Of a DNA stretch of 32,509 nt, positions 15,552-32,509 are shown one piece after another. Source of the stretch: Candidatus Kapaibacterium sp. (GTDB lineage Bacteria > Bacteroidota > Ignavibacteria > Kapaibacteriales > UBA2268); contig JAQUZU010000005.1 in the NCBI GenBank assembly GCA_028691175.1, forward strand, positions 1 through 32,509, written 5' to 3'. A model generated the notes under the pieces. It was not told the DNA's origin and did no database searches. It worked only from the letters and a program-made list of their open reading frames with translations. The translations under genes and the position numbers were made by a program. Numbering within the stretch: position 1 is the stretch's first letter; every line of letters begins with the position of its first letter.

Positions 15552-15571
15552 TAACACATAAAAATCATCTA

Positions 15572-15600
15572 GGGCACATTAAATTTGTGCCCTTTTTTTT
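15572..15600 (+). terminator. intrinsic terminator
   Basis: GGGCACA (15572-15578) pairs with TGTGCCC (15586-15592). T8 at 15593-15600. Confidence 0.85.
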
Positions 15601-15700
15601 AATATCCGGAAGTAAATCTCCGCACTGCACTATATTTTCCGGATTTGCCACTTAAATCAAAGTAATTCAATAACTTTTTTGAAAATATTGTGAAAAATGT

Positions 15701-15731
15701 TTTGTTTATTTCAACCCCTTTATTATATTTG
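15701..15731 (+). promoter_or_regulatory. candidate Bacteroidota-type promoter (TTTG-N19-TATATTTG)
   Basis: TTTG at 15701-15704, 19-nt spacer, TATATTTG at 15724-15731, 54 nt upstream of the ATG at 15785. Motif match only. Confidence 0.35.
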
Positions 15732-15784
15732 TAATTATAGTATTCTATAATTCATAGAAAAACAATGATCTGAAAAGGACAAAA

Positions 15785-16828
15785 ATGGAAAATTCTGAAA
15801 AAAAATATAAAATTCTAATAGCTGAAGATGAAATCACTAATTCATTACTACTAAAAAGATTACTTACAAAAGCGAACTATGACGTAACAGTTACAAATAA
15901 TGGTGCGGCAGCATTCGAAGCAATGCAAAACGAAACTTTTGACGCAGTTCTTACCGACTGGATGATGCCAAACATGGACGGCATCGAACTTATCCAAAAA
16001 ATGCGTAGCGAAATGAAAGAACTTCCGCTGATAGTAATGATTACGGCACTTGTAAGCGAAGGCTCGCGAAATATCGCGTTAGAAGCCGGTGCAGACGAAT
16101 TTATCGCAAAGCCGATCGACGTAGAAGATCTTTTAATACACGTGAAAGACGGATTATGCAAAAAGAATCAGTCGGCTATGCCGGCTACTTTTACTCCGAC
16201 AAGTAAAAATAACGGTTTCGTCGCTGCAAACGCAAATACCGAGAAGCCACCATTCGTCGGCGTAGGCGTCGCCACCTCTACAGGCGGGCCGAGCGTACTT
16301 ATCGACATGTTCAGAAATATTCCGGAAGACGTTCCGGCAGCATTTTATCTTATCCAGCACGGACCAATCTGGATGCTGGATTTATTCACCACCAAGTTGC
16401 AGTCTGCAACTGCTCTGAAAGTATATCTTGCGCAAGACGGGCAGAAATCCGAACGCGGACGCATATATGTCGCTCCTGCCGACAAACACTTGACCATCGA
16501 CAAAGCCACCATGAAAATCGTACTCGACGACAATCCGAAAATCAACTTTGTTCGCCCATCGGCAGACCCGCTATTTACGTCGCTTTCGTATGCTTTCGGC
16601 AAATACAGTATCGGCGTAATCCTTACCGGATTAGGTCGCGACGGCGTTCAGGGAGTTTCGAATATTGCCGAAATCGGCGGTAAAGTAATAGTTCAGGATC
16701 CGCTCAAAGCAGTGGCTCCGCTTATGCCGCAAGCCGTCATCGACAGCGGAATCAATCTGACAATCGCTCAGACAGAAGACCTCGCTTTCACAACGAGAAA
16801 TACGATTGACGAATTATACGCAAACTAA
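15785..16828 (+). CDS. cheB: CheB-like response regulator / protein-glutamate methylesterase
   Basis: 347 aa. REC domain (KILIAEDE...DAVLTDWMMPNMDG...AKP). C-terminal CheB methylesterase with the Ser/His/Asp contexts ATSTGGPSVL, IQHGP and LTGLGRDGVQG. Confidence 0.88.
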   Translation: MENSEKKYKILIAEDEITNSLLLKRLLTKANYDVTVTNNGAAAFEAMQNETFDAVLTDWMMPNMDGIELIQKMRSEMKELPLIVMITALVSEGSRNIALEAGADEFIAKPIDVEDLLIHVKDGLCKKNQSAMPATFTPTSKNNGFVAANANTEKPPFVGVGVATSTGGPSVLIDMFRNIPEDVPAAFYLIQHGPIWMLDLFTTKLQSATALKVYLAQDGQKSERGRIYVAPADKHLTIDKATMKIVLDDNPKINFVRPSADPLFTSLSYAFGKYSIGVILTGLGRDGVQGVSNIAEIGGKVIVQDPLKAVAPLMPQAVIDSGINLTIAQTEDLAFTTRNTIDELYAN

Positions 16829-16880
16829 AGGACTTAGTCCTGTTGGCGTTTCATAACAAACTCACACATACACAAAAAAA

Positions 16881-16906
16881 GGGCGATCAATTTCGCCCTT
16901 TTTTTT
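16881..16906 (+). terminator. intrinsic terminator
   Basis: GGGCGA (16881-16886) pairs with TCGCCC (16893-16898). T8 at 16899-16906. Confidence 0.85.
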
Positions 16907-17015
16907 GCATACAATCCGCATTTGTTTCTGAATTACAACAATTACTTAATTTGTCCCGCCTCTAAATAATCATTTTTGCATTTAGATATAATTTTCTCGA
17001 AAATCTTTTTTAAAG

Positions 17016-17047
17016 TTTGTTTTTGTTGTCAAATGTCGCTATTTTTG
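17016..17047 (+). promoter_or_regulatory. candidate Bacteroidota-type promoter for the mmd operon (TTTG-N20-TATTTTTG)
   Basis: TTTG at 17016-17019, 20-nt spacer, TATTTTTG at 17040-17047, about 93 nt upstream of the mmdA ATG. Motif match only. Confidence 0.35.
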
Positions 17048-17139
17048 TGTTTTATTAATTTATACATATTGGAAAAGTATATACAAAAAATAGAAAGTAA
17101 ACTTTTTCATTAATCATAAAAACAGGTAAAAAACTAAAT

Positions 17140-18696
17140 ATGAGTACTAACAAAGAAAAAATCGACGAGCTTCGCGAGAAGAAAGCCAAAGCCCTTTTAG
17201 GCGGTGGCGAAAAACGCATCGAGAAGCAGCATCAGCAGGGCAAACTCTCTGCAAGAGAGCGTCTCGGATTACTGTTTGATAATGGATTCTATGATGAATT
17301 CTTTATTTTTGCAGAACCAAACAAACAACTTTGCGATCATCCAAACGCTAAAGAAATGCACGCAGACGGCGTTGCAACCGCTTTGGGCGCAGTAGATGGC
17401 AGATTAGCTTATGCCGCATCGCAGGACTTCACGGTTTCCGGCGGTTCAGTAGGCTATATGCACGCATGGAAAATTTGCGAAATGGGTCGCAAGGCTCTTC
17501 GCGACGGTGCACCATTTATTACAATCAACGATTCGGGTGGAGCACGTATTCAGGAAGGTATCAACGCATTGCGCGGATATGGTGAAATATTTTATCACAA
17601 CACATTGCTCTCCGGCGTAGTTCCGCAGATTGCAATCATCTCCGGCCCGTGTGCGGGCGGTGCTGCATATTCTCCGGCTTTGATGGATTTCATCATTATG
17701 GTCAAGAATACCGGCAAGTTGTTCATCACCGGTCCTAACGTAATCAAAGAAGTTACCGGCGAAGACATTTCCGCAGAAGAACTCGGCGGCGCAATGGCTC
17801 ACGCAGTTAACAGTGGTAACATTCACTTTGTAGCAGAAGACGACGAAGACGCAATTGCAATTACCAAGAAACTTCTTAGTTATTTGCCGAGCAACAATAC
17901 AGAAGAACCACCGTACACCGGTTCTTGCGAACTTGAAATTCCAAACGACGAATCACTCAACAGCATTTTGCCGGATGATCCGCGCGAAGCATACGACATG
18001 TTCGATGTATTGAACAAAGTATTCGATCCGGGTTCGATCTTCGAAATTCAGGCAGATTGGGCTAAATCAATCATTATCGCTTTCGCTCGCCTCAACGGCA
18101 GAGTAGTCGGCGTAGTTGCTAATCAACCGAACTATATGGGCGGTATCCTCGACATCAACTCGAGCGATAAAGGTGCTCGTTTCATCCGTTTCTGCAACGC
18201 ATTCAATATTCCTATATTGACATTAGTAGATGTACCGGGCTTTATGCCGGGTATCGAGCAGGAATTTGGCGGCATTATTCGCCACGGCGCTAAGATGCTC
18301 TTTGCTTATTCTTCGGCAACAGTTCCGAAACTGACTCTTATTCTCCGCAAGGCTTATGGTGGAGCATTCTTGGCAATGTGTGCTAAATCTCTCGGTGCAG
18401 ACCGCGTAGCTGCATGGCCAACTGCAGAAATCGCCGTTATGGGACCTGAAGGTGCAGTTGCAGTACTTAATAAAGATGAAATCAAAAACGCTGCAGATCC
18501 GAAGGCAAAACGCCAAGAACTCATTCAAGAGTACAAAGACAATTTGCTCAACCCATACGTTGCAGCATCTATCGGCATGATTGACTCCGTTATCGAACCA
18601 ATGCAGACTCGTCTTTACTTATCGATTGCTCTCGAAACATCTAAGAGCAAGAGAGAATTAAGACCACAGAAAAAACACGGCTTAATTCCAATGTAA
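17140..18696 (+). CDS. mmdA: methylmalonyl-CoA decarboxylase alpha subunit (carboxyltransferase; propionyl-CoA carboxylase beta-chain family)
   Basis: 518 aa. Typical carboxyl_trans family sequence (GKLSARERL, DFTVSGGSVG, SGGARIQEG, ISGPCAGGAAYSPAL, RKAYGGA). Operon context with OadG-like, biotin carrier and OadB-like genes. Confidence 0.92.
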   Translation: MSTNKEKIDELREKKAKALLGGGEKRIEKQHQQGKLSARERLGLLFDNGFYDEFFIFAEPNKQLCDHPNAKEMHADGVATALGAVDGRLAYAASQDFTVSGGSVGYMHAWKICEMGRKALRDGAPFITINDSGGARIQEGINALRGYGEIFYHNTLLSGVVPQIAIISGPCAGGAAYSPALMDFIIMVKNTGKLFITGPNVIKEVTGEDISAEELGGAMAHAVNSGNIHFVAEDDEDAIAITKKLLSYLPSNNTEEPPYTGSCELEIPNDESLNSILPDDPREAYDMFDVLNKVFDPGSIFEIQADWAKSIIIAFARLNGRVVGVVANQPNYMGGILDINSSDKGARFIRFCNAFNIPILTLVDVPGFMPGIEQEFGGIIRHGAKMLFAYSSATVPKLTLILRKAYGGAFLAMCAKSLGADRVAAWPTAEIAVMGPEGAVAVLNKDEIKNAADPKAKRQELIQEYKDNLLNPYVAASIGMIDSVIEPMQTRLYLSIALETSKSKRELRPQKKHGLIPM

Positions 18697-18723
18697 CAGT
18701 AACAATGAGAATATAAAAAAATA

Positions 18724-19086
18724 ATGAATGATAACGTTTTATTAGCCACACAAATGCTCGTAATTGGAGTGGGTGGCGTGTTTGTAGCATTGATATTTTT
18801 TGCAATTGTAATTGCAATAATTCGCGATGCTAAATCTTGGTTCGGGAAAAAACAACAACCGGCTGCTGCTGTTTCTGCAGAAAAATCAGTTGTCTCTGTT
18901 CCGAAGGAGGATCCACGCGATATCGTGGCAATAATTTCTGCTGCTGCCGAAGTCGCTTATGGCAAAAGAGTTAAAATTACGAAAATATCCTTCTTACAAA
19001 GTCATGCAGATTCCGGATGGACAGAGTATAGCAGGTTGGGCACAATGTCGAACCATAACATAATATTGAAGGGAACCATGAGATGA
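18724..19086 (+). CDS. mmdD: methylmalonyl-CoA decarboxylase delta subunit (OadG-family membrane anchor)
   Basis: 120 aa. A single N-terminal TM helix (LVIGVGGVFVALIFFAIVIAII) as in OadG/MmdD, plus operon position. Confidence 0.8.
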   Translation: MNDNVLLATQMLVIGVGGVFVALIFFAIVIAIIRDAKSWFGKKQQPAAAVSAEKSVVSVPKEDPRDIVAIISAAAEVAYGKRVKITKISFLQSHADSGWTEYSRLGTMSNHNIILKGTMR

Positions 19087-19268
19087 AAGATGAAAAAATA
19101 TCCGAAGAAATTCTCGCCTTAATTACTGCCGTTGCAGTCGCTGCAACAGGTAAAAAGGTTGAAGTAAAAAGAATCAGTTTCCTAAATCCGCAACAAGAAA
19201 ACCGTAGTTGGACTCTTGTCGGAAAAGTAAATACAATGTCGAATCATAATTATAATTTAAAAGGATAA
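19083..19268 (+). CDS. mmdE: methylmalonyl-CoA decarboxylase epsilon-like small subunit (paralog of the delta C-terminus)
   Basis: 61 aa. The start overlaps the mmdD stop (ATGA). The sequence ALITAVAVAATGKKVEVKRISFLNP..WTLVGKVNTMSNHNYNLKG aligns with mmdD residues AIISAAAEVAYGKRVKITKISFLQS..WTEYSRLGTMSNHNIILKG. Confidence 0.75.
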   Translation: MKDEKISEEILALITAVAVAATGKKVEVKRISFLNPQQENRSWTLVGKVNTMSNHNYNLKG

Positions 19269-19274
19269 ATATAA

Positions 19275-19688
19275 ATGAAAAAATTGAGAATTGCCGTTGA
19301 TGGCAAACAATACGATGTGGAAGTCGAAATCTTGGAAGATGACGAAAATAACGTTCTTCCATCTTATTACAACCAAACTGCTCCGGTTAATGTAGCACCA
19401 CGTGCTGCTGCTCCGGCTGCTGCTGCCGCAGCTGCCGCTCCGCGTGCAAAGAAGACTCCGACTAAAGCTGCAGGCGAGAACGAATTAACTTCACCTATCA
19501 ACGGTGTAGTTCTCGAAATCCCGACCAAAGCTGGTCAGACAGTTGCTGAAGGCGAAGTTGTAATCGTACTTGAAGCTATGAAAATGAAAACTAATATTTC
19601 TTCTCCAAAAGCAGGCGAAATTGCATCTATAAATGTAAGCCTCGGTGACCGCGTAGAAGCAGGTCAGAGCCTCGTTACATTTAAATAA
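19275..19688 (+). CDS. mmdC: methylmalonyl-CoA decarboxylase gamma subunit (biotin carboxyl carrier protein)
   Basis: 137 aa. Ala/Pro-rich linker (APRAAAPAAAAAAAAPRAKK) and the biotinyl-lysine motif LEAMKMKT. Confidence 0.92.
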   Translation: MKKLRIAVDGKQYDVEVEILEDDENNVLPSYYNQTAPVNVAPRAAAPAAAAAAAAPRAKKTPTKAAGENELTSPINGVVLEIPTKAGQTVAEGEVVIVLEAMKMKTNISSPKAGEIASINVSLGDRVEAGQSLVTFK

Positions 19689-19699
19689 GGATACATAAA

Positions 19700-20830
19700 A
19701 TGTTAGAAGCTTTTGAACGATTTGTCGGCAGTATGGGCTTCCAAGCCCTCACTGCCGGTAACGTGCTAATGATGTTAATCGCCGGAGTATTGATCTGGTT
19801 GGCAATTAAAAAAGGTTTTGAACCACTGCTGCTTTTGCCGATTGGCTTAGGCGCTTTGCTGACAAATATTCCGCTTAACGGACTGCTTAACGAGCCGACT
19901 GCCGAAGCAATAGGCGGCTTATACTATTACATTTCGCAGGGTATTCATCTCGAAATCTTTCCGCCTTTGATCTTTTTGGGCATTGGCGCGATGACGGATT
20001 TCGGTCCGCTGCTGGCTAATCCGAAAACCTTCTTATTAGGTGCCGGTGCGCAATTCGGTGTATTCTCGGCTCTTTTTCTTGCGATTATGCTGGGTTTCTC
20101 TCCGCGAGAAGCCGCTTCCATCGGTATTATCGGTGGTGCTGACGGCCCGACTGCGATATTCCTGACTTTGAAACTTGCTCCGCATTTACTTGGTCCAATC
20201 GCTGTGGCTGCATATTCATATATGGCATTGATTCCTATGATTCAGCCGCCGATTATGAAATTGATGACCACAAAGAAAGAACGCGAAGTAGTGATGACTA
20301 CTTCTAAACCTGTTAGCAAGAATGTCCGCATAATCTTCCCGATTATCGTTATGGTGTTCTCGCTATTGGTAGTACCTGCTTCTGCAGCCTTAATCGGTAT
20401 GCTTATGGCCGGTAACTTACTTAAAGAATCGGGCGTTGTGGAGAGACTTTCAAACATGGCTCAAAACGAATTGATGAATATCGTTACTTTCTTCTTGGGT
20501 ACAAGCGTTGGTATGACAATGAGCGCCGACTCTTTCCTTTCGATTGCTACATTGAAGATTATCGTGCTTGGCGTACTTGCTTTCGGATTTTCAACTTTCG
20601 GTGGTCTGGTACTTGGTAAAATTCTTTATAAAGTAACCGGCGGAAAAGTTAATCCGCTTATCGGTGCGGCAGGTGTATCTGCAGTTCCGATGGCAGCTCG
20701 CGTGGCTCATAACGAAGGACAGAAATACAATCATAATAATTACTTGCTTATGCACGCAATGGGCCCGAACGTCGCAGGCGTAATCGGCTCGGCTGTTGCT
20801 GCAGGTATTCTGCTATCGTTCTTCCAATAA
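19700..20830 (+). CDS. mmdB: Na+-translocating decarboxylase beta subunit (OadB/GcdB/MmdB family)
   Basis: 376 aa polytopic membrane protein. FEPLLLLPIGLGALLTNIP, GIGAMTDFGPLLANP and GGADGPTAIF blocks are typical of the family. Confidence 0.93.
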   Translation: MLEAFERFVGSMGFQALTAGNVLMMLIAGVLIWLAIKKGFEPLLLLPIGLGALLTNIPLNGLLNEPTAEAIGGLYYYISQGIHLEIFPPLIFLGIGAMTDFGPLLANPKTFLLGAGAQFGVFSALFLAIMLGFSPREAASIGIIGGADGPTAIFLTLKLAPHLLGPIAVAAYSYMALIPMIQPPIMKLMTTKKEREVVMTTSKPVSKNVRIIFPIIVMVFSLLVVPASAALIGMLMAGNLLKESGVVERLSNMAQNELMNIVTFFLGTSVGMTMSADSFLSIATLKIIVLGVLAFGFSTFGGLVLGKILYKVTGGKVNPLIGAAGVSAVPMAARVAHNEGQKYNHNNYLLMHAMGPNVAGVIGSAVAAGILLSFFQ

Positions 20831-21193: not shown

Positions 21194-22147
21194 ATGAAAA
21201 ATTTCAATATGATTTTTAGTTCCATAGTGTTTTTATCTATATCTTCTATGGTATGTTTTGCAAAAGCAGAAACAAAGACAATTAATACTGAGTTGGGGGA
21301 ATGTACCCATAAGATGGAGTTAATCGACGGCGACGGCGACGGCAAGTATGATTTAATAAAAAATTATTTCATTGGTGGCGACGGTGTGTGTTATAAACAT
21401 ACAGAAGGCCCAATAAAAAAACCGGAAACAAAGACAATTAATACTAAGTTGGGGGAATATACCCATAAGATGGAGCTAATCGACCGCGACGGCGACGGCA
21501 AATATGATTTAATAAAAAATTATTTCATTGGTGGCGACGGTGTGTGTTATAAACATACAGAAGGCCCAATAAAAGAAATAGCTGTACCTAAAAATCCTTC
21601 GTTTGAACATAACGCACAAAGATTCTGTAGCGATATTGAAAATATGGTTTTCTATGCTAAAGATTATACTCACTTAGATCTGCAGGATACAGCAAGCCAT
21701 ATTTCTCCAAATATGGAAGTAGTATTATATACTAATCCGGAATGCGACGGTACATGGTTTGCAACAATCACATCCAATGCTCTCGGAGAGTATAAGATCG
21801 AAAAATATGCCGTTTTTGAGATGACCGACACACAATTCTTACAATTATTCTTAACTCCATACGGCATTTCTGCCGAGGGACATACTCCGGAAGATTTTAT
21901 AATTACTTGTCCCGATATTATTACCGGCGAAACAATTGATTTGACGCTCGGAACTCTCGCTGCTCAGATATACAATAAATTTGAATTATTCAATTCAGAG
22001 GGTTTGCTTATTTCAACAATAATTAATGATTCAAAACTTAAATTTTTATCATTCTCCACATCCGGTCTGCCGAACGGAACATATATTATCCGTAATACCT
22101 CTACTCTGAACGAAACTGATACAAAGACTATTCTCCTAAATAAATAG
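21194..22147 (+). CDS. secreted T9SS-sorted protein with duplicated DGDGDG-containing module
   Basis: 317 aa. Strong SD (AAGGAGAG). Signal peptide MKNFNMIFSSIVFLSISSMVCFA. Two 52-aa tandem repeats. The C-terminus ELFNSEGLLISTI...LPNGTYIIRN...KTILLNK resembles a T9SS type-A sorting domain. Confidence 0.8.
   Translation: MKNFNMIFSSIVFLSISSMVCFAKAETKTINTELGECTHKMELIDGDGDGKYDLIKNYFIGGDGVCYKHTEGPIKKPETKTINTKLGEYTHKMELIDRDGDGKYDLIKNYFIGGDGVCYKHTEGPIKEIAVPKNPSFEHNAQRFCSDIENMVFYAKDYTHLDLQDTASHISPNMEVVLYTNPECDGTWFATITSNALGEYKIEKYAVFEMTDTQFLQLFLTPYGISAEGHTPEDFIITCPDIITGETIDLTLGTLAAQIYNKFELFNSEGLLISTIINDSKLKFLSFSTSGLPNGTYIIRNTSTLNETDTKTILLNK
21269..21580 (+). repeat. in-frame 156-bp tandem duplication (2 copies; 5 substitutions over ~150 aligned nt)
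   Basis: Copy 1 is 21269-21424, copy 2 is 21425-21580. Hand alignment shows g>a, g>a, t>c, g>c and g>a differences, then divergence in the last ~6 nt. Confidence 0.95.
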
Positions 22148-23317: not shown

Positions 23318-24523
23318 ATGGATATCGAACACCTTGGTCAAGTATTTACCCCGGCGGAAATCGTCGGGCAAATGCTTGCTCTGCGACGAAACTTCGGACG
23401 CGTGCTTGAACCTTCGTGTGGTGCCGGAGCATTTTATAAAGTTATTTGGGACTGCGTTGCAATCGAACTTGACCCGCTTGTTTGCCCGCCGGGAGCAAAT
23501 TGTACAGACTTTTTCGATTATCCGACAGAAGAGAAATTCGACACAATTATCGGCAATCCGCCATACGTTCGATATCAAGACATTGCACCGGCGACAAAAA
23601 AAATAATCGAAAGCAAGAGTGCAAATTTCAACGTTTCCGCGGTGGACTTCGACCGGCGCTCGAATCTGTATCTCTTCTTCATCGCAAAATGTATCGAACA
23701 CCTTACGCCGCACGGCGAACTGATTTTCATTACGCCACGCGAATTTCTGAAAGCAACCTCAGCCCGCAAGTTAAACGAATTTATCTATGATAGCGGAACA
23801 ATTACCGACTTAATCGACCTCGCTGACCAACGTGTTTTCGACGGTGCCACGCCGGACTGCATTATATTTCGCTTTGAAAAGGGAAATTTCACGCGAAAAA
23901 CGGCTGTCGCAACCGGTACGCTTCGGCAGGCTGACCGCCGGCTAAATGAACTTCGCATCGGAAAATTTTCTACTAAATTTTTTTCGATTTCGAACGGACA
24001 ATTACTTTTTACGTCGGACGAATATCAGGCTAAATTCTCTGATTTGTTTTATGTAAAAGTCGGCGGAGTAAGCGGAATGGACAGTGTATTTGCCTCAGAC
24101 GAATTCGGCACGCACGATTTTGTCTGCTCTGAAACTCGGCAAACCGGCGCAACCCGGCGTATGATTTACAACTCAAAATGCAACTATCTCGAGCAACACA
24201 AATCGGAACTTCTCGCTCGGCGGATCCGGCACTTTGACGAAAGCAATTGGTGGATGTGGGGACGCAACTGCTATGTTTCGTCTGCCCCGCGCATCTACGT
24301 CAATATGAAAACTCGCGTAGAAAATCCGTTTTTTCTGCATTCCTGCAACTATTTCGACGGCTCTATTCTTGGGATTTTTCCGCACGACATAAGTGCAGAC
24401 CTTAATAAACTGTGCGAAAAGCTAAATTCAATCGACTGGGCGGAACTCGGTTTCCGTGCCGGCGGCAGGTTCCTTTTCAGCCAAAGAGCGCTTGAAAATA
24501 CCAAAATAATGATTATCGATTAA
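23318..24523 (+). CDS. solitary N6-adenine DNA methyltransferase, gamma class (M.TaqI/Eco57I-like)
   Basis: 401 aa. Motif X QVFTPAEIV, motif I VLEPSCGAGAF, motif IV IIGNPPYVRY in that order, followed by a ~300-aa C-terminal region (presumed target-recognition domain). Confidence 0.88.
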   Translation: MDIEHLGQVFTPAEIVGQMLALRRNFGRVLEPSCGAGAFYKVIWDCVAIELDPLVCPPGANCTDFFDYPTEEKFDTIIGNPPYVRYQDIAPATKKIIESKSANFNVSAVDFDRRSNLYLFFIAKCIEHLTPHGELIFITPREFLKATSARKLNEFIYDSGTITDLIDLADQRVFDGATPDCIIFRFEKGNFTRKTAVATGTLRQADRRLNELRIGKFSTKFFSISNGQLLFTSDEYQAKFSDLFYVKVGGVSGMDSVFASDEFGTHDFVCSETRQTGATRRMIYNSKCNYLEQHKSELLARRIRHFDESNWWMWGRNCYVSSAPRIYVNMKTRVENPFFLHSCNYFDGSILGIFPHDISADLNKLCEKLNSIDWAELGFRAGGRFLFSQRALENTKIMIID

Positions 24524-24627: not shown

Positions 24628-27600
24628 TTATTTAACTTTTACGATTTCCTTAGTTATAGATGAGTTACCAGCCATAATGTTCAGGTAGTAAGTACCGGAC
24701 GGTAAATCGTTGCCGTTAAGTTCTACAACATGAGAACCTGCAGCGAAGAATTGACCTGTGGTAAGAGTGCGAACAACTTCGCCTACTGCGTTGTACATTA
24801 CGATAGTTACGTCCATTCCTTCAGGTAATGTAAAGCTGACATTTGCATTTGCATAGAACGGGTTCGGAGTAGCAGAGAAGTTAGCAAGAGCGTCGTTATC
24901 TTCTACACTTACAGTACCGTTGATTTCAAATGTTTCAGTTCTGTCGTATTCGAGACCTTCTTGGCCGTCATAGATTGCTCTGATGACTGCTTCTTTAGTA
25001 TTTACGTTTGGCACGTTCCAAGAATAAGTCTTGTACATTGCTGCTACGCCTACTGCGAATGTTGACCAAGTCGAACCGTTATCGGCAGAGAATTGTAAGT
25101 CAAATTTATTTACATTATCGTAAGTCCATTTAACGTTTTCTTTCGAATTTGCAGCGACGCTTGATTTAGCAGTCGGAGTAGTTAATGTAACAACGCCTGC
25201 CAATACTTTGAATGCAGATGAAGTAACAACAACTTCGTCAGTCTGAACATCGATCATGCGAACGTAAGCGGATTTAGTATTTACAACCGGAAGAGTCCAG
25301 TCTGCTTTACCATCGCTTGCATTTACAACGCCTGTAACTGTAGTCCAGTCATAACCGTTTGCTGTGAATTCGAATCTTACGTTACCAGTGTAATCGTAGT
25401 TCCATTTAATTACGTCTGCTTTACCGCCTACATATACAGGATCAGTAGAGCAAGGACGAGTAATTTCTGCAGTTGCAGTGCTGAGAGCGAATGTAGCGTC
25501 TGAACGATCTACTTCTACGCCTGATTCAGCATTTACTATTCTAACGAATGCTTCTGTAGATTTTACTCTCGGAGTTACCCAGTTGTAGCTTAAGTCAGAG
25601 CTCATAACCGGAGTAGTTGTAATTCTGTTCCAAGTGTGTGCATTGTCTGTAGAGTAATCCAAGTGGAAGTATGCTTTCTGGCTTGGAGCAGACCAAGTGA
25701 TTGTATAGAGCGAACCTGCTTCGAGTTCTTCGCCGCCATTCGGATAAGTTACAGTAGCAACTTTATCGAGAACAACTGCCGGAATCGGCTCGAAAGTACC
25801 TTGAGCTGTTACATTTTGACCATTTGTAGTATATACTACAGTGATCGGGTGCCAGTTAAGGAAGATGCCTTCGTTCATATTTATAACTTTGAATCTTAAA
25901 GTACCCATGTAAGTAGCGCTATTAGGAACGTTTGCACCCGGTTTGCGTACTTGATCATAGATGTTATAATCGATATCGATTGTTCTTAGGTCTGTAATCG
26001 GGTCTTTAGCGTTTGCATATGGAGCCGAGAACGTTTCGAGATAACCGAGATCTTCTCTTTGATCAAAGATCACGTCTGCTTCTTTGCTCATTTCAACGAA
26101 TTGCAATTGAGCATTATCATATTGAATACCGAAAGTAGAGTTACCAAGAGCGAATTCGCCACCCAAGTTAGTAATGTACATAGGAACATTCAAATATTCT
26201 CCGTCGAGTTCAGGATTAGCATTTACTCTATAGTTCAAGCCTGCTTGAAGAGTTGCTTCTTTAGCTTCAGTTGTAGTAAAGTCTTCATTATTGATTACTT
26301 TTTGCTCGAGTTCGATATTGCGTTTGTAGAGTTCCGGAGCAAGAACCATAAGTTCGCTGTTATATTCCGGAGCAACTTTTCCGCTAACAGACGGAGTAGC
26401 AGTCAATGAAGAGATTTTACCTGAGTTACGATAAACGATTTGTCTATCAGATGCGTTTGTCAAACCGTCGCCGGTAACATCTGTATTAACGCTTGTACCA
26501 CCGTCATTTAAGATAACGAGAGTTCTATCTGCAGCATTGATTTGACCATCTTTTACTACATCACCACCAACCATTGCTGCAATTGAAGTAGCACCAGTAG
26601 TGCCTACTAAACCGTTGTTATAAACAAGTCCTGTAGCGGCATAATCAGTTAAGTTAGGATTAGTTTCAGAATAACCGTATGCAGAGTATTTGTCTGCGAT
26701 CGACGGCGGAACAGCCGCAGCGTCAGTTTCACTCATGTTATTATTTGCAGTACCATTCCAGTTTTGGAAATCCCAACCTGATTCAACTGCCCAAGTTTGT
26801 GCATCATCGCCATCATAAGCGAATGGAGCAGCAAATGCGGACATAATCGGCAAGTGGTTAATGTTATCAACTTTTACGAAATATCTACCGTCTGCGAGGT
26901 CTGTGAATACGAACGGAACGTTTGCGTATCTTGAACCATCAGTTCCACGAGTTATCGGATCGAGTGTAGTAGCATGTGCCAAATAGTTAAATTCTGATTC
27001 AGCAGAGTCAACTCTTACGCCCGGGAGGCCTGCATTATTGCGGAAGAGAGTAATCTTCAAGCCGCCTTCTGCATAAGAAGCACCGATGTCGTTTTTAATA
27101 GCCTGATCTTCGTGATGACCTTCGAGAAGTACTCTTACAGTGAAGTTACTTGGAGGAGTAATGTTGAAGTATTCAGTCATTGATTGCAATGAAGGCATAA
27201 GACCGTCTGCACTGTTATCATATTCAAGAGTAGTACCGTTGATAGTCGAGCGAGCATTCATTAACAATCTACCGTTAGTTTTAGCGGCTGCGATTGGAGC
27301 TTGATCGCTATAAGTGAAGTCATCATTTTCGTCAGGATCAGCCAAGGATACATCCAATTGTGCAGCGAATTGAGATTTGCTGTTTGCACCAAGGAATTCG
27401 AATCCGTTGTTAGAAGCCGGCAAAGTCATTGCGTTAGTATAAGCTGCAGACCAAGTCTGAGATGCTACATATTGCCAATCTTGGATAGTTGTACCACCGC
27501 CACCTTTTACAGAGAACTGCATGTCTGCATGGTTAGTTGCATCGCTACCATTATAGAATGTTTCAGTAGCGTCATTTCTGTTATAATCGAAACCTGTCCA

Positions 27601-30600
27601 GCGAACTTTAAGGTTAGTCATTGTATTAGGAACTCTTTGTTCGAGTACCGGTTCAACGAGTTTAATAGTCGGGCGAGTTGCTTCATAAGCATAACCATCG
27701 CCGCTCATATGTACTAAGAATTCAGTTGAAGTCGGATAACCCAATGCAGTACCAACATAACCTGTAGGAACGAAGTTACCACCGTTAAAGCTGAATGCAG
27801 CCAATAAGTTTGCAGCATAGTTTGTACCACCATAACTTACTAATTCGTTTGCACGGATTGTAGCTGCACCTTGAACAAATTTAGTCAAAGCAGAAGGTTC
27901 AACGCCTGACGGAGCCTGATTACCAGGATTTCCACCCCAGAATCTTACTTCTTTCATTTCACCAACGAAATGAACGCCTTCGCCTGCTACTGAACTTGGT
28001 TCGTAACCGAAGAATACCGGATAAGTATTATAAGGATCTACAGTAACGTTTGCGCCTAATTGAGTAGTAATTGTATCTACATATTGCGGAGTACCGTCGA
28101 TATAGAATCTTACAACCGAATTTTCGCCACCGTTTGCCAAATTAACATAAGCTGCTACATGATACCATGCAGAGTCAGATACTTGCAGTGTCGGAGGAAC
28201 CAATACCGGATGTGCTGCACTTGTTGCAGTGCGGATTGCGTCGCCGGTAGTTGATGCAACTGCTAATTGCAATTGACCTGTAGGTAATAAGCGGAGAGAA
28301 TAATGCATATTTTCGCTACCATCATCCATTTTCTTGGTAATGATCGGGAAATAACCTTCTTCTTCAGTCGGGAATCTGTACGGACGAACCCATGCTTCGA
28401 TCATACCGATACCGCCATTGAAGTTTAAGTCTGAAGTATTTTCTTTTACTGCTAATTTAGCATTACCGTCATTTTTGATTGAGAAGTAAGGAGCAACTGT
28501 GAAATCGCCGGATTCATCAAAGATATCGTATTGATTTCTTGCTTCTGTACCGCTGATTCTCAGACGAACTGTCTTCGAATAGTTGTCTGCGAGCGGAAGA
28601 ATACCCTGTAAATCGTCATCTTGACCGGATACAGTAGTATTGTTATAAGGAGCCCACTCTGCTTCATAGCTTTCTACATCTACGTAGTCAAGCATCTGAG
28701 CCGGAGATTGATTGTCGATTGCGTCGAACCAAGATTCGCCACCGTCGCGGCTAGCCATAATTTGAATGTCTGAAGAATTCGGTTCAGTCGAACCCAAGCC
28801 AAAAGATACCCAACGTACTTTAAATACTTCGTCTTTCAAGTTAGAGATACCTTCGCCGCCGACAGGTGCAGTCAATTTGATGTGCGAGCGGTCCGGGCGA
28901 TAATTAACGAGACTGTTATCGAGAGTACCGCAATTGTACCAGTTCAGCGGGTTAGCGCTCTTTTGGTAGTAATATTCATCAGCGATATCAAGGCGTCCAC
29001 CCTGTAACGGATAATAAAGTTCAAGAGTAGTTCTTTCATCAACTGTGGTAGGAGAAGAACCAAGAGCAGTAATGTCGCCATTTGCGTCATATACGCCGGC
29101 AATATTTTTTCTCAAAACGTCTTGGTCAAGAGCAGTTCTCCAAACCTTTACTTCTTTGATACCTGCATTGAGGTAATCACCTTCGTTTAAGCCACCATTA
29201 GGATTTACACCAATCCAGATCGGATGAGTAGTAGCCCATAATCTCGGACTTACAAGGTCGCTGTTAGTATATCTGTCTACGATTTCGCCATTTACATAAA
29301 GTGTAACAACGTTATCTTTTACAGATGCTGCGATATGATTCCAGTTATTGCCGTGTGCGTTTGAAATCGGAGTAGTAGCGGCAACTGCTGTTAATGCTGT
29401 CGGAGAGACAACATTTGCAAGTAAGTTTGCGCCGTTGTTTGTGTTTTCGCGGCAACGGAATGCCGGGTAAATACCGTCTTTCAAATAAAGCATCCAAGCA
29501 CCTTCGGAGCCGGAAAGAGTACCATCTGCGGAAACTACGATACCGGTTTCTGCGCCGGCAGTTTCAGTTAAACCGTTCAGGTTAATCCATGCTTCTACAG
29601 TCAATTGGCTAGGAGTAGAGAAGTTGTTTTGTGTTTTAAGATAAGAGCAAGTACCATCGAGTTGAACAAAGAATAGTCTGCCCAATACGAATGTAGCATT
29701 GCTTTCGTCTTTTCTGCCTGCTTCGTTTGTGTATTTGCTTCTTGTGCTAACGTTATTTGCCACGCCAACTGTATCGATTTGTACAATGCGGAGTTTGCCT
29801 TCTTCTGAACGTGCAAAGAAGTTTTCGTTACCCTTCCAGATAATTCTCATAACGCCGGAATTAGCACCTAATTTTGTAGTGCCGTCGCCTTCAGTAATGA
29901 AATATCTGTTAGCTGAGTTAAGACTGTCGATTTCGCCACTGCGATATTTATCTACCTCTGTGCCGAGTTCGGTCGAGTTTTTATCAGTTTCAGCTACACG
30001 GCCTGCTTCAGTCCAAGTAGAACCGTTATTCAAAGAATATTCAAGTGCATAACCAACTTTATTGGTTACATAATCTGCCGTTCCTATTAAACCACTACGC
30101 TCGAAATATACCGGATAACCGTTATTCGGAGAGAGGGAAGCAAGAGCGGGACTAGGATTTCTGTTTACTGCATTGCTGCCGCCATTCGGAGCAAGAATTG
30201 TAATGCCGCGAACCGTGAAATCGCCTTGATTTACAAAATTAACGTCTGCGGTAATGTCATTGCCGTCAGCGTCGTCAATTACGATTGTACCAATGCTGGC
30301 GTTTGTATTGAATTCAATACCGGTAAGCATTGCGTCAGTCAAAGTGCTGTAATTTTTAATGTCAAATTTTAACATACCGACGAATGAGCCGCGACCTACG
30401 TTTGAAGGTTTGTAGCCTACGCCATCGACTGTTTTATTTACATCGAGTACATAATAATATGTTGTTCCGTCATTTGCCGGAGCAGCCGAAAGAGCCAAAT
30501 AGCCATTGGCGTTTACGTTATGGAATGGGGATGCGATAGTAACATACGGTTGTGCAACGTCCATATCGTAGCCGATAGAATCAGTTGTGCCATACGCTGT

Positions 30601-30870
30601 TGTCCCCGACGGGGTCAAGAAATCCGTATTGTATTTCACTGCGAAAGTAGCGTTGCCCAGTTTCGGAGCGGTGCCGTCTGCAGTTACATCTTTTGCCCAT
30701 ATTTCTACGCCGATCTTATTGCCGATACGACGCTGGTTCATAGTTACTTCGTAACTCTGCGAGAAAGCGTCATCAGTCACGAGCATTAACCCCATAACGA
30801 ACCAGAAAATATTCAACCAAGATAGCCGGAAGGGCTTTGCTTGTCTATTTAGATAAGTTCTCATTATCAT
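24628..30870 (-). CDS. giant T9SS-sorted surface protein with cohesin-like, dockerin-like and LamG-like modules
   Basis: 2080 aa. Signal peptide (..LMLVTDDAFSQ) and internal modules (see findings). C-terminal NPFYANANVSFTLPEG..VTIVMYNAVGEVV..LPSGTYYLNIMAGNSSITKEIVKVK is a T9SS type-A sorting domain. SD spacing favours the second ATG (30864). Confidence 0.92.
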   Translation of the reverse strand: MIMRTYLNRQAKPFRLSWLNIFWFVMGLMLVTDDAFSQSYEVTMNQRRIGNKIGVEIWAKDVTADGTAPKLGNATFAVKYNTDFLTPSGTTAYGTTDSIGYDMDVAQPYVTIASPFHNVNANGYLALSAAPANDGTTYYYVLDVNKTVDGVGYKPSNVGRGSFVGMLKFDIKNYSTLTDAMLTGIEFNTNASIGTIVIDDADGNDITADVNFVNQGDFTVRGITILAPNGGSNAVNRNPSPALASLSPNNGYPVYFERSGLIGTADYVTNKVGYALEYSLNNGSTWTEAGRVAETDKNSTELGTEVDKYRSGEIDSLNSANRYFITEGDGTTKLGANSGVMRIIWKGNENFFARSEEGKLRIVQIDTVGVANNVSTRSKYTNEAGRKDESNATFVLGRLFFVQLDGTCSYLKTQNNFSTPSQLTVEAWINLNGLTETAGAETGIVVSADGTLSGSEGAWMLYLKDGIYPAFRCRENTNNGANLLANVVSPTALTAVAATTPISNAHGNNWNHIAASVKDNVVTLYVNGEIVDRYTNSDLVSPRLWATTHPIWIGVNPNGGLNEGDYLNAGIKEVKVWRTALDQDVLRKNIAGVYDANGDITALGSSPTTVDERTTLELYYPLQGGRLDIADEYYYQKSANPLNWYNCGTLDNSLVNYRPDRSHIKLTAPVGGEGISNLKDEVFKVRWVSFGLGSTEPNSSDIQIMASRDGGESWFDAIDNQSPAQMLDYVDVESYEAEWAPYNNTTVSGQDDDLQGILPLADNYSKTVRLRISGTEARNQYDIFDESGDFTVAPYFSIKNDGNAKLAVKENTSDLNFNGGIGMIEAWVRPYRFPTEEEGYFPIITKKMDDGSENMHYSLRLLPTGQLQLAVASTTGDAIRTATSAAHPVLVPPTLQVSDSAWYHVAAYVNLANGGENSVVRFYIDGTPQYVDTITTQLGANVTVDPYNTYPVFFGYEPSSVAGEGVHFVGEMKEVRFWGGNPGNQAPSGVEPSALTKFVQGAATIRANELVSYGGTNYAANLLAAFSFNGGNFVPTGYVGTALGYPTSTEFLVHMSGDGYAYEATRPTIKLVEPVLEQRVPNTMTNLKVRWTGFDYNRNDATETFYNGSDATNHADMQFSVKGGGGTTIQDWQYVASQTWSAAYTNAMTLPASNNGFEFLGANSKSQFAAQLDVSLADPDENDDFTYSDQAPIAAAKTNGRLLMNARSTINGTTLEYDNSADGLMPSLQSMTEYFNITPPSNFTVRVLLEGHHEDQAIKNDIGASYAEGGLKITLFRNNAGLPGVRVDSAESEFNYLAHATTLDPITRGTDGSRYANVPFVFTDLADGRYFVKVDNINHLPIMSAFAAPFAYDGDDAQTWAVESGWDFQNWNGTANNNMSETDAAAVPPSIADKYSAYGYSETNPNLTDYAATGLVYNNGLVGTTGATSIAAMVGGDVVKDGQINAADRTLVILNDGGTSVNTDVTGDGLTNASDRQIVYRNSGKISSLTATPSVSGKVAPEYNSELMVLAPELYKRNIELEQKVINNEDFTTTEAKEATLQAGLNYRVNANPELDGEYLNVPMYITNLGGEFALGNSTFGIQYDNAQLQFVEMSKEADVIFDQREDLGYLETFSAPYANAKDPITDLRTIDIDYNIYDQVRKPGANVPNSATYMGTLRFKVINMNEGIFLNWHPITVVYTTNGQNVTAQGTFEPIPAVVLDKVATVTYPNGGEELEAGSLYTITWSAPSQKAYFHLDYSTDNAHTWNRITTTPVMSSDLSYNWVTPRVKSTEAFVRIVNAESGVEVDRSDATFALSTATAEITRPCSTDPVYVGGKADVIKWNYDYTGNVRFEFTANGYDWTTVTGVVNASDGKADWTLPVVNTKSAYVRMIDVQTDEVVVTSSAFKVLAGVVTLTTPTAKSSVAANSKENVKWTYDNVNKFDLQFSADNGSTWSTFAVGVAAMYKTYSWNVPNVNTKEAVIRAIYDGQEGLEYDRTETFEINGTVSVEDNDALANFSATPNPFYANANVSFTLPEGMDVTIVMYNAVGEVVRTLTTGQFFAAGSHVVELNGNDLPSGTYYLNIMAGNSSITKEIVKVK

Positions 30871-31011: not shown

Positions 31012-32509
31012 TTATGGAGTTACGCTAAATATTTCACTTGATTTAGTTCCTACCTTCAGAGTATAAGGCTCTGCAGATGAACTGCCGTCCGATGAGTAAA
31101 TTTTGAGTGTATAGGTACCGGCAGCGAGCCCATTAATTACCGGACCTTCACTACCTTGTCCTAAGCGGATACCGCGACGGATTCTCTTGCCTTCGGTATT
31201 GTAGATTTCTACATTGTAGCCGGCCGGTAAGTTGCTAAGTTGAGCACGAACATTCGGGTTTGCACTGCTTACGGAGAAGTTGAACCAATCTTCGTCTGTT
31301 GCATCTTTGATTGTACCTTTTACCGGTGTGTTAGTACCGATTGTACGGGAAGTCTCGCGAGTATTGTTTTCGCCAAACGCTACATCATCATCGTTGCTGC
31401 CACTGGTAGTAAATGCTTGTGGGTTTCCGCTTGCTGCAGAAAGTTTGTAGCTTTCTGTGCCGTTTGAACCTGCGAAAGCAAATGCATAAGCATAGTATGT
31501 CGTATTTGGAGACAAACTGCGAACTGTAGCAGCAGCAGTAGCACCTTTTGCAACAACAACGGCGTCGCCGATTTGCGAACCTGCGCCATAAAGTGCATCA
31601 GCTGTATATGTAGTACCATTTACCGGATATTCGGCTTTTGTCAATGGTTCGCCTGCTTTAAGGACGATAAGAGCAGTAGCTGCACTTGTTGTCCAAGCAA
31701 TATCGGCAGTTGTGTTTGCCGGAGTAATAGTAACAATTGTTGCCTGAGTAGCCGGAGCATCAGCAACCACGTTAAATGCTTTGCTTACTGTCGGTGTATA
31801 AACGTTAGCAGCGTCGTCATCAGCCTGAAGTTGGATATTTGCACCTGCTGCTGTACTTGCAGTAGCCGTAAGAGTAGTAAATGAACTTCCTGCAGTAATT
31901 ACGCCTTTAACAGGCTCATCAGTAATAGTGGTAGTAGCACCAAGTTTTTTAGTAAGTTCTACATTTACCGGAGTTTCAGTAGTAATCGGCTGACCAAATT
32001 GATCCTGCAATTGAACAGTTACCGTGAAAGGTCTGTTAAGCTGAACCGGATTCGGAGAAATGTTTGTAATTACTACGTTCTTTGCAGCGGTAGAAATTGC
32101 AGCATCGACTGCTGTATTAGCTGCGTCAGTATTATCATACTCTTGACTAATACTAAATACAGCCCAATCGCCTGCGAGAGCAGTAGAATTTGCTATTGAG
32201 TAATCATTAATAATCGCATCATTAGCACCGGATTTGCCATTTCTGTAATCTTTCCACGCATCGTTTTCCCATTTTGCTGCTATATTTCTTTTTGCAGTAC
32301 CTGTTGTGCCTACAGCAGTACCTGTTGCGAAAGTAGCATTCAAAGCGTCGTTCGGGTCGGTGCCGACAGGTTTAATCGTATAAACCAAATCGAGTGCATT
32401 TTCCGGATTGCCGGCTCTGCCTACTGTCGGCTCTGTTGCTTTTGCAGAAACTATTACTTCCTGAGTTGTGCCAGGAGTTTGGAAATTCAAAGTTACCGGA
32501 TTATAATCG
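31012..32509 (-). CDS. surface/secreted protein with Ig-like, FN3-like and PPC (pre-peptidase C-terminal) domains; partial, N-terminus beyond the right edge
   Basis: The frame stays open upstream of the track's TTG at 32490 (..DYNPVTLNFQ..), so the gene continues off-window. Ig-like block VVITNISPNPVQLNRPFTVTVQLQDQFGQPI. FN3-like block IVTITPANTTADIAWTT...NTTYYAYAFAF. PPC-like block DWFNFSVSS...YNVEIYNTEGK...GTYTLKIYSSDG..EPYTLKV. Confidence 0.85.
   Translation of the reverse strand, partial: DYNPVTLNFQTPGTTQEVIVSAKATEPTVGRAGNPENALDLVYTIKPVGTDPNDALNATFATGTAVGTTGTAKRNIAAKWENDAWKDYRNGKSGANDAIINDYSIANSTALAGDWAVFSISQEYDNTDAANTAVDAAISTAAKNVVITNISPNPVQLNRPFTVTVQLQDQFGQPITTETPVNVELTKKLGATTTITDEPVKGVITAGSSFTTLTATASTAAGANIQLQADDDAANVYTPTVSKAFNVVADAPATQATIVTITPANTTADIAWTTSAATALIVLKAGEPLTKAEYPVNGTTYTADALYGAGSQIGDAVVVAKGATAAATVRSLSPNTTYYAYAFAFAGSNGTESYKLSAASGNPQAFTTSGSNDDDVAFGENNTRETSRTIGTNTPVKGTIKDATDEDWFNFSVSSANPNVRAQLSNLPAGYNVEIYNTEGKRIRRGIRLGQGSEGPVINGLAAGTYTLKIYSSDGSSSAEPYTLKVGTKSSEIFSVTP

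Follow-up and report, generated by a model that had tools for sequence, protein, structure and literature searches.

Cohesin–dockerin pairs are best known from the cellulosomes of Gram-positive bacteria, and they serve biotechnology as very strong orthogonal connectors. A gene of Candidatus Kapaibacterium sp. raises the question of what such modules would do when they lie together on a single surface protein of a diderm bacterium. The window analysed here is the whole stretch of 32,509 nucleotides of contig JAQUZU010000005.1 (assembly GCA_028691175.1). The gene, at 24628..30870 of the minus strand (6,243 nt), encodes a protein of 2,080 residues that was recognised as a cargo of the type IX secretion system (T9SS) from the open reading frame (ORF) list, its translation, and Pfam/NCBIfam scans. 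From the N-terminus, the modules are a signal peptide (SP), a predicted first cohesin (CohN), Ig-like, LamG, Ig-like, LamG and Ig-like parts, a β-sandwich termed X, the dockerin (Doc), a linker, a predicted second cohesin (CohC), Ig-like repeats, and the C-terminal sorting domain (CTD). An initial annotation, made from the sequence, had proposed that the dockerin and its potential partners on this chain could drive head-to-tail polymerisation, intramolecular locking, or recruitment of other dockerin proteins. Our analysis suggests co-evolution of the dockerin with the adjacent cohesin, which makes it most likely that the protein grips itself or other copies of its kind rather than building an enzyme complex.

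A compact dockerin

The dockerin was assigned to residues 1435–1484, GGDVVKDGQINAADRTLVILNDGGTSVNTDVTGDGLTNASDRQIVYRNSG, which map exactly to 26419..26568 of the minus strand; coordinates, residue numbers and sequence are those first annotated. It consists of a 12-residue EF-hand-like loop followed by a helix, twice. Loop 1, DVVKDGQINAAD, spans residues 1437–1448 (26527-26562, minus strand) and loop 2, DVTGDGLTNASD, spans residues 1464–1475 (26446-26481, minus strand), so that the loop starts are 27 residues apart. The 2,080-residue protein contains two matches to the pattern D...DG.[ITVL][ND]..D, compared with a mean of 0.0013 in shuffled proteins. As two or more matches were found in 0 of 20,000 shuffles, a chance motif was rejected. 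No further match to a looser loop pattern was found in the six frames of the window.

The initial annotation had called for a search with the Pfam model Dockerin_1 (PF00404), and the outcome depended on the length of the query. The whole protein scored 15.8 bits, under the cutoff of 22.9, and a 270-residue segment scored 21.7 bits, whereas excised segments of 91 and 71 residues passed with 27.2 and 26.5 bits. Scanned in isolation, the segment did not show the sub-threshold score that had been named at first as a possible refutation. Orthologous segments matched in 27 of 28 cases at E<=0.01, with a best value of 1.3e-10. A profile of the dockerin family was compared with all sequences of the PDB, and 28 of the 29 matches at E<=0.03 were dockerins. 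The first was chain 2Y3N_B from B. cellulosolvens (4e-7), followed by X-dockerin chains of CipA, with 2B59_B, 3KCP_A and 5G5D_B among the best. Calmodulin appeared at E 0.05 only, far behind about 28 dockerins, and a generic EF-hand or calmodulin-like motif was rejected on this ground.

In the AlphaFold2 (AF2) model, the dockerin segment has a predicted local distance difference test (pLDDT) of 94–97. Its helices, residues 1446–1454 and 1473–1481, begin at loop position 10 of both repeats, as in canonical dockerins. Loop positions 1, 5, 9 and 12 are D/N/D in both loops and almost invariant across 119 distinct orthologues, in agreement with the canonical pattern noted at first. It had also been pointed out, correctly for the window protein, that position 3 is V in loop 1 and T in loop 2. 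Across the 119 orthologues, position 3 of loop 1 is N in 26% and V in 24%, and Y, E and I also occur; in loop 2, it bears an oxygen-containing side chain (T/N/S/D) in 115 of the 119. This justifies, for loop 1, the caveat that calcium ligation may be atypical.

Among all domains of the protein, conservation is highest in the dockerin, with a mean consensus identity of 0.67. It is about 46 residues long, compared with 57 positions in the Pfam model. From sequence and model together, residues 1435–1484 are assigned as a genuine, compact dockerin, which would bind calcium via its two EF-hand loops.

Two divergent cohesins

CohN comprises residues 39–232 (30175..30756, minus strand) and was recognised with AF2, Foldseek and hhalign. 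CohC comprises residues 1541–1707 (25750..26250, minus strand) and was recognised from its profile, from Pfam matches in orthologues, and with Foldseek. The positions of the two cohesin-like modules had been read correctly from the sequence: the N-terminal one begins at residue 39-40, and in the downstream one, LNYRVNANPE begins at residue 1545 and GTLRFKVINMNEG at residue 1656. Their common pattern, LGN.TF..Y[DN]...L, was also found in both.

A search with the Pfam model Cohesin (PF00963), likewise called for at the outset, fell short of the gathering threshold of 24.1 bits. CohC gave a partial match at 15.6-16 bits, and CohN had no match to PF00963. Orthologous segments of CohC did match it at E<=0.1 in 18 of 28 cases (best 8e-6), compared with 2 of 35 for CohN. 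A profile of CohC was searched exhaustively against 1.8 billion representative proteins and retrieved 83, of which about 37 are full-length orthologues. The tail of this search contains accepted cohesins: the scaffoldins P0059, P0063 and P0065, with E from 1.7e-14 to 1.6e-7, have 6–7 Pfam cohesins each, plus CBM3/X2 or a dockerin. Against the sequences of the PDB, the sole matches of the CohC profile were CipA cohesins at E ~0.1, and the two best matches of the CohN profile were the type II cohesins 1TYJ and 2Y3N at E ~0.09. Deep profiles were required for this: a PDB search with the whole protein as single sequence returned no match, and a CohC profile built from three sequences gave only a chance match, which was discarded.

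The 479-residue X–Doc–linker–CohC region (residues 1232–1710) was modelled by AF2 with a pLDDT of 86.1 and a predicted template modelling (pTM) score of 0.88, and CohN with 93.4 and 0.90. In Foldseek searches of the PDB, the top 31 matches of the 479-residue model are all cohesins, the aligned part within the model being unspecified, and so are the top 49 matches of the single-domain CohN model. These cohesins belong to types I, II and III, with target-normalised template modelling (TM) scores of 0.44–0.70 and E down to 2e-7. The best fold matches of both modules are the type II cohesins 3FNK, 3GHP, 1TYJ and 1QZN. The models thus display the nine-stranded cohesin jelly-roll, and not the unrelated β-sandwiches that had been considered as the case against the proposal. 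CohN and CohC also align with each other in hhalign (probability 98.1%, E 8e-14, 155 columns), and their identity to solved cohesins is 8–17%. Taken together, models and profiles identify CohN and CohC as genuine, if divergent, cohesins that are homologous to one another. Since one NCBI record names a fragment 'Dockerin protein' and one homologue carries a precomputed weak Pfam Cohesin match, the modules are not wholly unannotated.

Covariation between the dockerin and CohC

Mutual information (MI) with average product correction (APC) was calculated over 1,906 alignment columns of 107 full-length orthologues, which are 1,937–2,354 residues long and correspond to an effective number of sequences (Neff) of 77. 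Among the 1,815,465 pairs, the best pair linking the dockerin to any other part of the protein is S1474–Y1680, with an MI-APC z of 7.1. The two residues are reciprocal best partners, and the pair ranks 13 overall. S1474 (codon 26449..26451, minus strand) is position 11 of repeat 2, which we take to be a canonical cohesin-recognition position, as in type I complexes. Y1680 (codon 25831-25833, minus strand) lies in the eighth strand of the CohC model. In cohesin–dockerin complexes, the 8-3-6-5 sheet of the cohesin is the canonical dockerin-binding face.

In 94 of the 107 sequences, either D/T/S at 1474 is combined with H/Y/W at 1680, or V/I/L at 1474 with L/I at 1680, and the states flip repeatedly within clades. 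Tests on residue classes along the tree gave, overall, phi of 0.76–0.85 and 8–12 same-branch switches, with p from 4e-6 to 4e-14. When residues were coded as aliphatic or other on an unweighted pair group (UPGMA) tree, 1680 was the top partner of 1474 among ~4,230 column-class tests, with 8 same-branch switches and p 3.9e-6, or ~0.016 after Bonferroni correction. The coding D/T/S versus H/Y/W, chosen after the data had been seen, gave 12 same-branch switches and p 4e-14. A full-alphabet test of branch co-change was marginal for this pair (13 co-changes, a value reached by 15 of 349 null columns).

CohC residues 1678 and 1686 and dockerin residue 1477 are secondary to the 1474/1680 pair. A weaker pair joins the acidic D1456 to a basic residue at 1614 in the strand-5 region of CohC (F1614 in the window protein, codon 26029-26031, minus strand), with phi 0.72 and p 1e-4, and is suggestive only. 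Weak hints were also seen between residue 1256 of X and dockerin residue 1459, and between residue 1260 of X and dockerin residue 1474. Phylogeny accounts for most of the raw MI-APC signal, as illustrated by dockerin column 1458, which pairs with many domains.

The same calculation was inspected for CohN. The best or near-best partners of positions 10 and 11 of repeat 1 (A1446 and A1447) are CohN residues 143, 197 and 199, the equivalents of strands 6 and 8. A contact of the dockerin with CohN (1446–143 and 1447–197/199) is not claimed, as z is 4.0–4.7 and p is 8e-3 before correction and lost after it. Among the 107 orthologues, no CohN counterpart to the Doc–CohC covariation survives correction.

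The covariation points to the adjacent CohC as the cognate partner of the dockerin, recognised through the canonical interface, and lends support to the idea, already voiced in the initial annotation, of a cognate cohesin on the same chain. The 1474/1680 pair appears to set the specificity of this recognition and to have switched many times.

A proposed calcium-dependent clasp

How would such a dockerin meet its cohesin? The account we consider best, and to which we give about an even chance of being right, is a calcium-dependent, intramolecular clasp between X–Doc and CohC. After export by means of the signal peptide, the protein would be sorted and anchored by the T9SS, which would place the X–Doc–linker–CohC cassette near the C-terminal, cell-proximal end and CohN at the distal end, with the two LamG domains between them. 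The cognate partner of the dockerin would be CohC of the same protein family, with dockerin helix 3 and position 11 of repeat 2 lying on the 8-3-6-5 sheet. The clasp, most likely closed in cis, would stiffen or force-proof the base of a lectin-bearing adhesin stalk and leave CohN free for another partner.

We consider closure in cis most likely because the tether is poorly conserved, because it is never shorter than 36 residues, and because X, dockerin and cohesin make up a single, confidently placed rigid body in the AlphaFold model, as judged from its pTM of 0.88 over three domains and 479 residues. The linker of the window protein (residues 1485–1540; 26251..26418, minus strand) is modelled as flexible, with one helix and low to moderate pLDDT. 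It is the least conserved segment of the family (0.31), with 23 of 48 columns alignable. From dockerin helix 2 to CohC strand 1, the 107 orthologues have 36–120 residues (median 73; 64 in the window protein), a distance never too short for folding back.

Several observations weigh against this account. With V at ligand position 3 of loop 1, one calcium site may be weakened. The case for recognition of CohC is made of one strong and one weak pair; the enrichment of CohC among the partners of the dockerin is not significant (6 of the 40 top MI-APC partners, p 0.15), nor is the reverse enrichment of top cohesin partners in the dockerin. The class tests were made on a UPGMA tree of 107 sequences (Neff 77), and the D/T/S and H/Y/W classes are post hoc. 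The docking of the dockerin onto CohC in the AlphaFold model is presumed from the pTM alone. The covariation does not distinguish binding in cis from binding in trans, and where a genome has two paralogues, their states at 1474/1680 are mostly orthogonal, for which a need to avoid cross-binding in trans is no worse an explanation than binding in cis. Of the three mechanisms first envisaged, the data favour self-recognition involving CohC, be it in cis or in trans.

Alternatives to closure in cis

Homotypic binding in trans comes next and is possible, if somewhat unlikely. The dockerin would reach over to a neighbouring copy of the protein and bind its CohC or, alternately, its CohN; the resulting dimers, head-to-tail chains or outer-membrane lattice would form a surface coat or a cell–cell adhesion layer. 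The Doc–CohC covariation supports recognition within the family with no need for cis, each dockerin comes with two cohesins, and the weak hints linking residues 1446 and 1447 of repeat 1 with CohN residues 143, 197 and 199 would fit. There is also a precedent, as the cohesin of R. bromii Amy4 was shown to bind the dockerin of its own polypeptide, and multimerisation was proposed (PMC4611034). Conversely, a Doc–CohC tether of at least 36 residues makes closure in cis entropically favoured, the AlphaFold model is a single rigid body (pTM 0.88), and the Doc–CohN signals are at noise level.

Paralogues bear on the same point. Nine genomes have two complete paralogues, and in ~8 of them a copy with the polar/H state at 1474/1680 is joined by one with the aliphatic/L state, as would be expected if selection acted against cross-binding in trans. 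The two states resemble orthogonal specificities, but they may alternatively reflect two old clades; the pattern largely follows these, which leaves only ~3 independent cases.

The pairs with opposed states are L014/L028, L022/L035, L013/L045, L019/L027, L015/L033, L012/L078, L011/L056 and L010/L076, one copy being D/T/S–H and the other aliphatic or other–L at Doc1474/CohC1680. L006/L025 is the exception. Some paralogues are just 12-25 kb apart.

Recruitment in the manner of a cellulosome is unlikely. In this scheme, the two cohesins would turn the protein into a mini-scaffoldin for other secreted proteins with dockerins; as an alternative or a supplement, its dockerin would plug it into separate small anchor proteins made of a cohesin and a T9SS CTD. 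Candidates for such anchors exist, since the CohC profile matches small SP–cohesin–CTD proteins of Ignavibacteria (P0061, P0062 and P0070) and a cohesin-plus-dockerin protein of 246 residues (P0075). Moreover, CohN has no identified partner, and a multi-cohesin scaffoldin with a T9SS CTD, together with dockerin-bearing enzymes, was proposed for metagenome-assembled genomes (MAGs) of Cloacimonadota (PMC8542988). Against recruitment, no glycoside hydrolase (GH), carbohydrate-binding module (CBM) or further dockerin gene was found in the window or within 10 kb across 79 related loci. CohN, Doc and CohC always occur together in one polypeptide, the dockerin covaries with its own CohC, and the protein already has a CTD anchor of its own.

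The three Ignavibacteria proteins combine a cohesin-like module with a T9SS sorting domain in about 360–530 residues, and P0075 combines a cohesin-like module with a strong Pfam dockerin. All four could be anchors or partners in a wider cohesin–dockerin network of the lineage. In word-indexed searches, a dockerin profile returned only short fragments and small dockerin-only ORFs, and a 478-residue region returned only three proteins.

A cellulosome combines a scaffoldin with separate dockerin-bearing enzymes and a CBM. This combination was not found in the protein, where a Pfam scan detected no GH or CBM domain, nor in the window, which holds no other dockerin or cohesin gene, nor in the 10-kb surroundings of the 79 loci, where tandem paralogues are the only other genes with cohesin or dockerin modules. 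As membership thus fails on the parts that can be tested, the protein is not to be filed as a cellulosome component.

A variant in which the dockerin holds two cohesins at once, CohC through repeat 2 and CohN through repeat 1, is doubtful, slightly more so than recruitment. With CohN from the same chain, the 2,080-residue protein would form a loop; with CohN from a neighbouring chain, head-to-tail fibres would result. The hint is positional, as the partners of repeat 1 in CohN mirror the pairing of repeat 2 with strand 8 of CohC, at signals that do not rise above noise. A dual hold would amount to a self-assembling, T9SS-anchored cohesin–dockerin surface structure in Kapabacteria/Ignavibacteria that is unrelated to polysaccharide degradation.

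Finally, it is very improbable that the modules are structural relics that retain their folds but have ceased to bind each other, the dockerin being a calcium-stabilised spacer and the cohesins inert β-sandwiches of a stalk. In favour of relics, divergence keeps both cohesins below the Pfam threshold (16 bits for CohC, nil for CohN), position 3 of loop 1 offers no side-chain ligand, and many non-cellulosomal cohesin and dockerin modules have no known partner, as summarised in PMC9012536 citing Peer et al. 2009. Against them, no domain of the protein is more conserved than the dockerin, where conservation extends to surface positions R13, V16, R/D17, R18 and N19 of the repeats, and specific covariation of a recognition position with strand 8 of CohC is not expected if there is no contact.

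Comparison with known systems

The closest solved relatives of the putative X–Doc:CohC clasp are the clostridial pairs of type II cohesins and X-dockerins, namely C. thermocellum CipA XDoc–SdbA (2B59), A. cellulolyticus ScaA/ScaB, and that of B. cellulosolvens (2Y3N). The likeness extends to both partners. The dockerin profile best matches the X-dockerins 2Y3N_B, 2B59_B, 3KCP_A and 5G5D_B, and both cohesins match type II folds first. The window protein also has a β-sandwich directly N-terminal to the dockerin. This candidate X module (residues 1236–1430; 26581..27165, minus strand) is modelled with mostly high-confidence strands, within the region of pTM 0.88, and has no Pfam match. The differences are equally clear. 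The cohesins of the family are distant in sequence from the solved ones, at the 8–17% identity given above, and the dockerin is shorter. Cohesin and dockerin are on one chain, 36–120 residues apart, in a diderm host from the Fibrobacteres–Chlorobi–Bacteroidetes (FCB) group, and a T9SS CTD serves as anchor rather than domains of the S-layer homology (SLH) type or a sortase signal. The family is also without attached enzymes or CBMs.

Both modules are combined in one protein, as self-recognising pairs, in R. bromii Amy4 and in cohesin-plus-dockerin proteins of Archaeoglobus fulgidus as well. Amy4 is a Gram-positive GH13 amylase with one cohesin, whereas the window protein has two cohesins and no catalytic domain. 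Self-binding was shown for Amy4; self-recognition of the window protein is proposed from covariation and a model.

The T9SS-anchored, cellulosome-like multi-cohesin scaffoldin proposed for Ca. Stygibacter (Cloacimonadota; PMC8542988) is similar in that a single large secreted protein, encoded in MAGs of the FCB group, unites cohesins with a C-terminal domain of the T9SS. In Ca. Stygibacter, tandem cohesins are accompanied by CBM2/CBM3 and paired with dockerin-bearing hydrolases (PMC8542988). In the family described here, two separated cohesins are accompanied by the protein's own dockerin and by LamG domains, and no dockerin-bearing enzymes are encoded nearby.

Cohesins and dockerins are widespread outside cellulosomes, for example in anaerobic methanotrophic (ANME) archaea, and often belong to large surface proteins of unknown role (PMC9012536). 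Unlike these general cases, the present architecture is fixed across ~100 genomes, and a specific partner within the family can be proposed.

The general idea is not new: descriptions or proposals exist for cohesins and dockerins outside cellulosomes, for pairs that bind themselves, and for cohesin proteins anchored by the T9SS. What appears distinctive from sequence is the fixed CohN...X–Doc–CohC layout in a giant, lectin-bearing T9SS protein with no enzymes or CBMs, cohesins that diverge from Pfam, and a tethered pair that would be self-cognate. The pair is fixed in a T9SS-anchored surface giant across ~100 genomes of uncultured Kapabacteria/Ignavibacteria. If the clasp is real, it would be a natural tethered, possibly intramolecular, cohesin–dockerin clasp in a diderm, the 1474/1680 pair could be used for designing orthogonal pairs, and the cell-surface biology of a lineage that is almost without cultured members would become more accessible. 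The main value of the locus lies in this testable specificity pair and in the possible intramolecular clasp in an uncultured diderm lineage.

Remaining domains of the protein

The first 37 residues (30760..30870, minus strand) look like a signal peptide in the translation, with a hydrophobic core, LNIFWFVMGLMLV, followed by AFSQ. The orthologues have an N-terminal layout like that of the window protein, ending in A-Q. At the other end, the T9SS type A C-terminal sorting domain (residues 2001–2078; 24637..24870, minus strand) scored 34.5 bits with TIGR04183 (cutoff 23) and 31.6 bits with PF18962 (cutoff 27). With a CTD above the curated thresholds and a signal-peptide-like N-terminus, the protein has the features of a T9SS cargo, and the anchoring stated in the initial annotation is borne out by a real sorting domain.

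The first lectin domain, of the Laminin_G_3/concanavalin A-like type, spans residues 406–584 (29119..29655, minus strand; PF13385, E 6.4e-28, two stretches) and is second in conservation within the family (0.64). The core of a second LamG-type, lectin-like domain spans residues 855–977 (27940..28308, minus strand), where the second PF13385 stretch and a weak PF02210 match were found. Ig-like repeats with the Asp-box-like motif YSxDxGxTW, whose repetition is visible in the translation, occupy residues 1708–1995 (24886..25749, minus strand) between CohC and the CTD. Pfam matches to Reelin_subrepeat-B, Kre9_KNH and BNR in these repeats are sub-threshold.

Family and gene neighbourhood

A scan of one genome per species yielded 99 related loci, and 10-kb neighbourhoods were surveyed for 79 loci. 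The records are titled as MAGs of Candidatus Kapaibacterium/Kapabacteria, Ignavibacteria and Chlorobiota. None of these loci exceeds 47% identity over the region compared. Every complete gene among the 79 loci has its modules arranged as CohN ... Doc–CohC. The X module carries the motif ESGWDFx[STN]W (ESGWDFxxW), and 99 of its 111 matches in the genome collection encode relatives of the family. Many of the MAG records are titled 'uncultured Hyphomicrobiales' (loci L003-L007, L010, L019, L023 and others), one Desulfobulbaceae and one Chloroflexota. Hyphomicrobiales is an alphaproteobacterial order; these titles are probably wrong, because the family is otherwise one of Kapabacteria, Ignavibacteria and Chlorobiota.

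In one homologue, L001 5564-11911 (ENA contig ERZ21831106:contig_114), the coding sequence is broken up into three ORFs of 1134, 341 and 637 residues, which overlap. One of the breaks is within the dockerin, and the gene is either affected by an assembly frameshift or a pseudogene.

Directly upstream of the giant gene, at 31012-32509 of the minus strand and running off the end of the window, lie the C-terminal 498 residues of a large, secreted, repeat-rich protein. Homologues in related loci (for example L005 1854-6263, L010 3-6095 and L001 904-5448) are 1,470–2,470 residues long, with a signal-peptide-like N-terminus, long T/N/G-rich repeats resembling a β-helix, then Ig/fn3-like parts and a conserved end, ...SEIFSVTP. 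The C-terminal fragment has no Pfam match and no dockerin or cohesin match, and no Pfam match is on record for the L001 homologue. As the two genes are immediately adjacent in at least 20 loci, the repeat-rich gene and the Coh–Doc–Coh gene are considered a conserved pair.

The genes around 24628..30870 are housekeeping genes. Just downstream of the giant gene and convergent with it, a 401-residue ORF (23318-24523, plus strand) matches only the C-terminal part of an Eco57I-type N6 DNA methylase. It may encode a truncated or stand-alone methylase, and no synteny of this ORF was seen in the related loci. An ORF of 317 residues at 21194-22147 has no Pfam match. Further away, genes with no relation to the Coh–Doc–Coh gene occupy 13569-20830 (plus strand). 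They encode an OmpA/VWA protein and a CheB methylesterase-response regulator, together with a carboxyltransferase and OAD_beta, a combination typical of a Na+-translocating decarboxylase.

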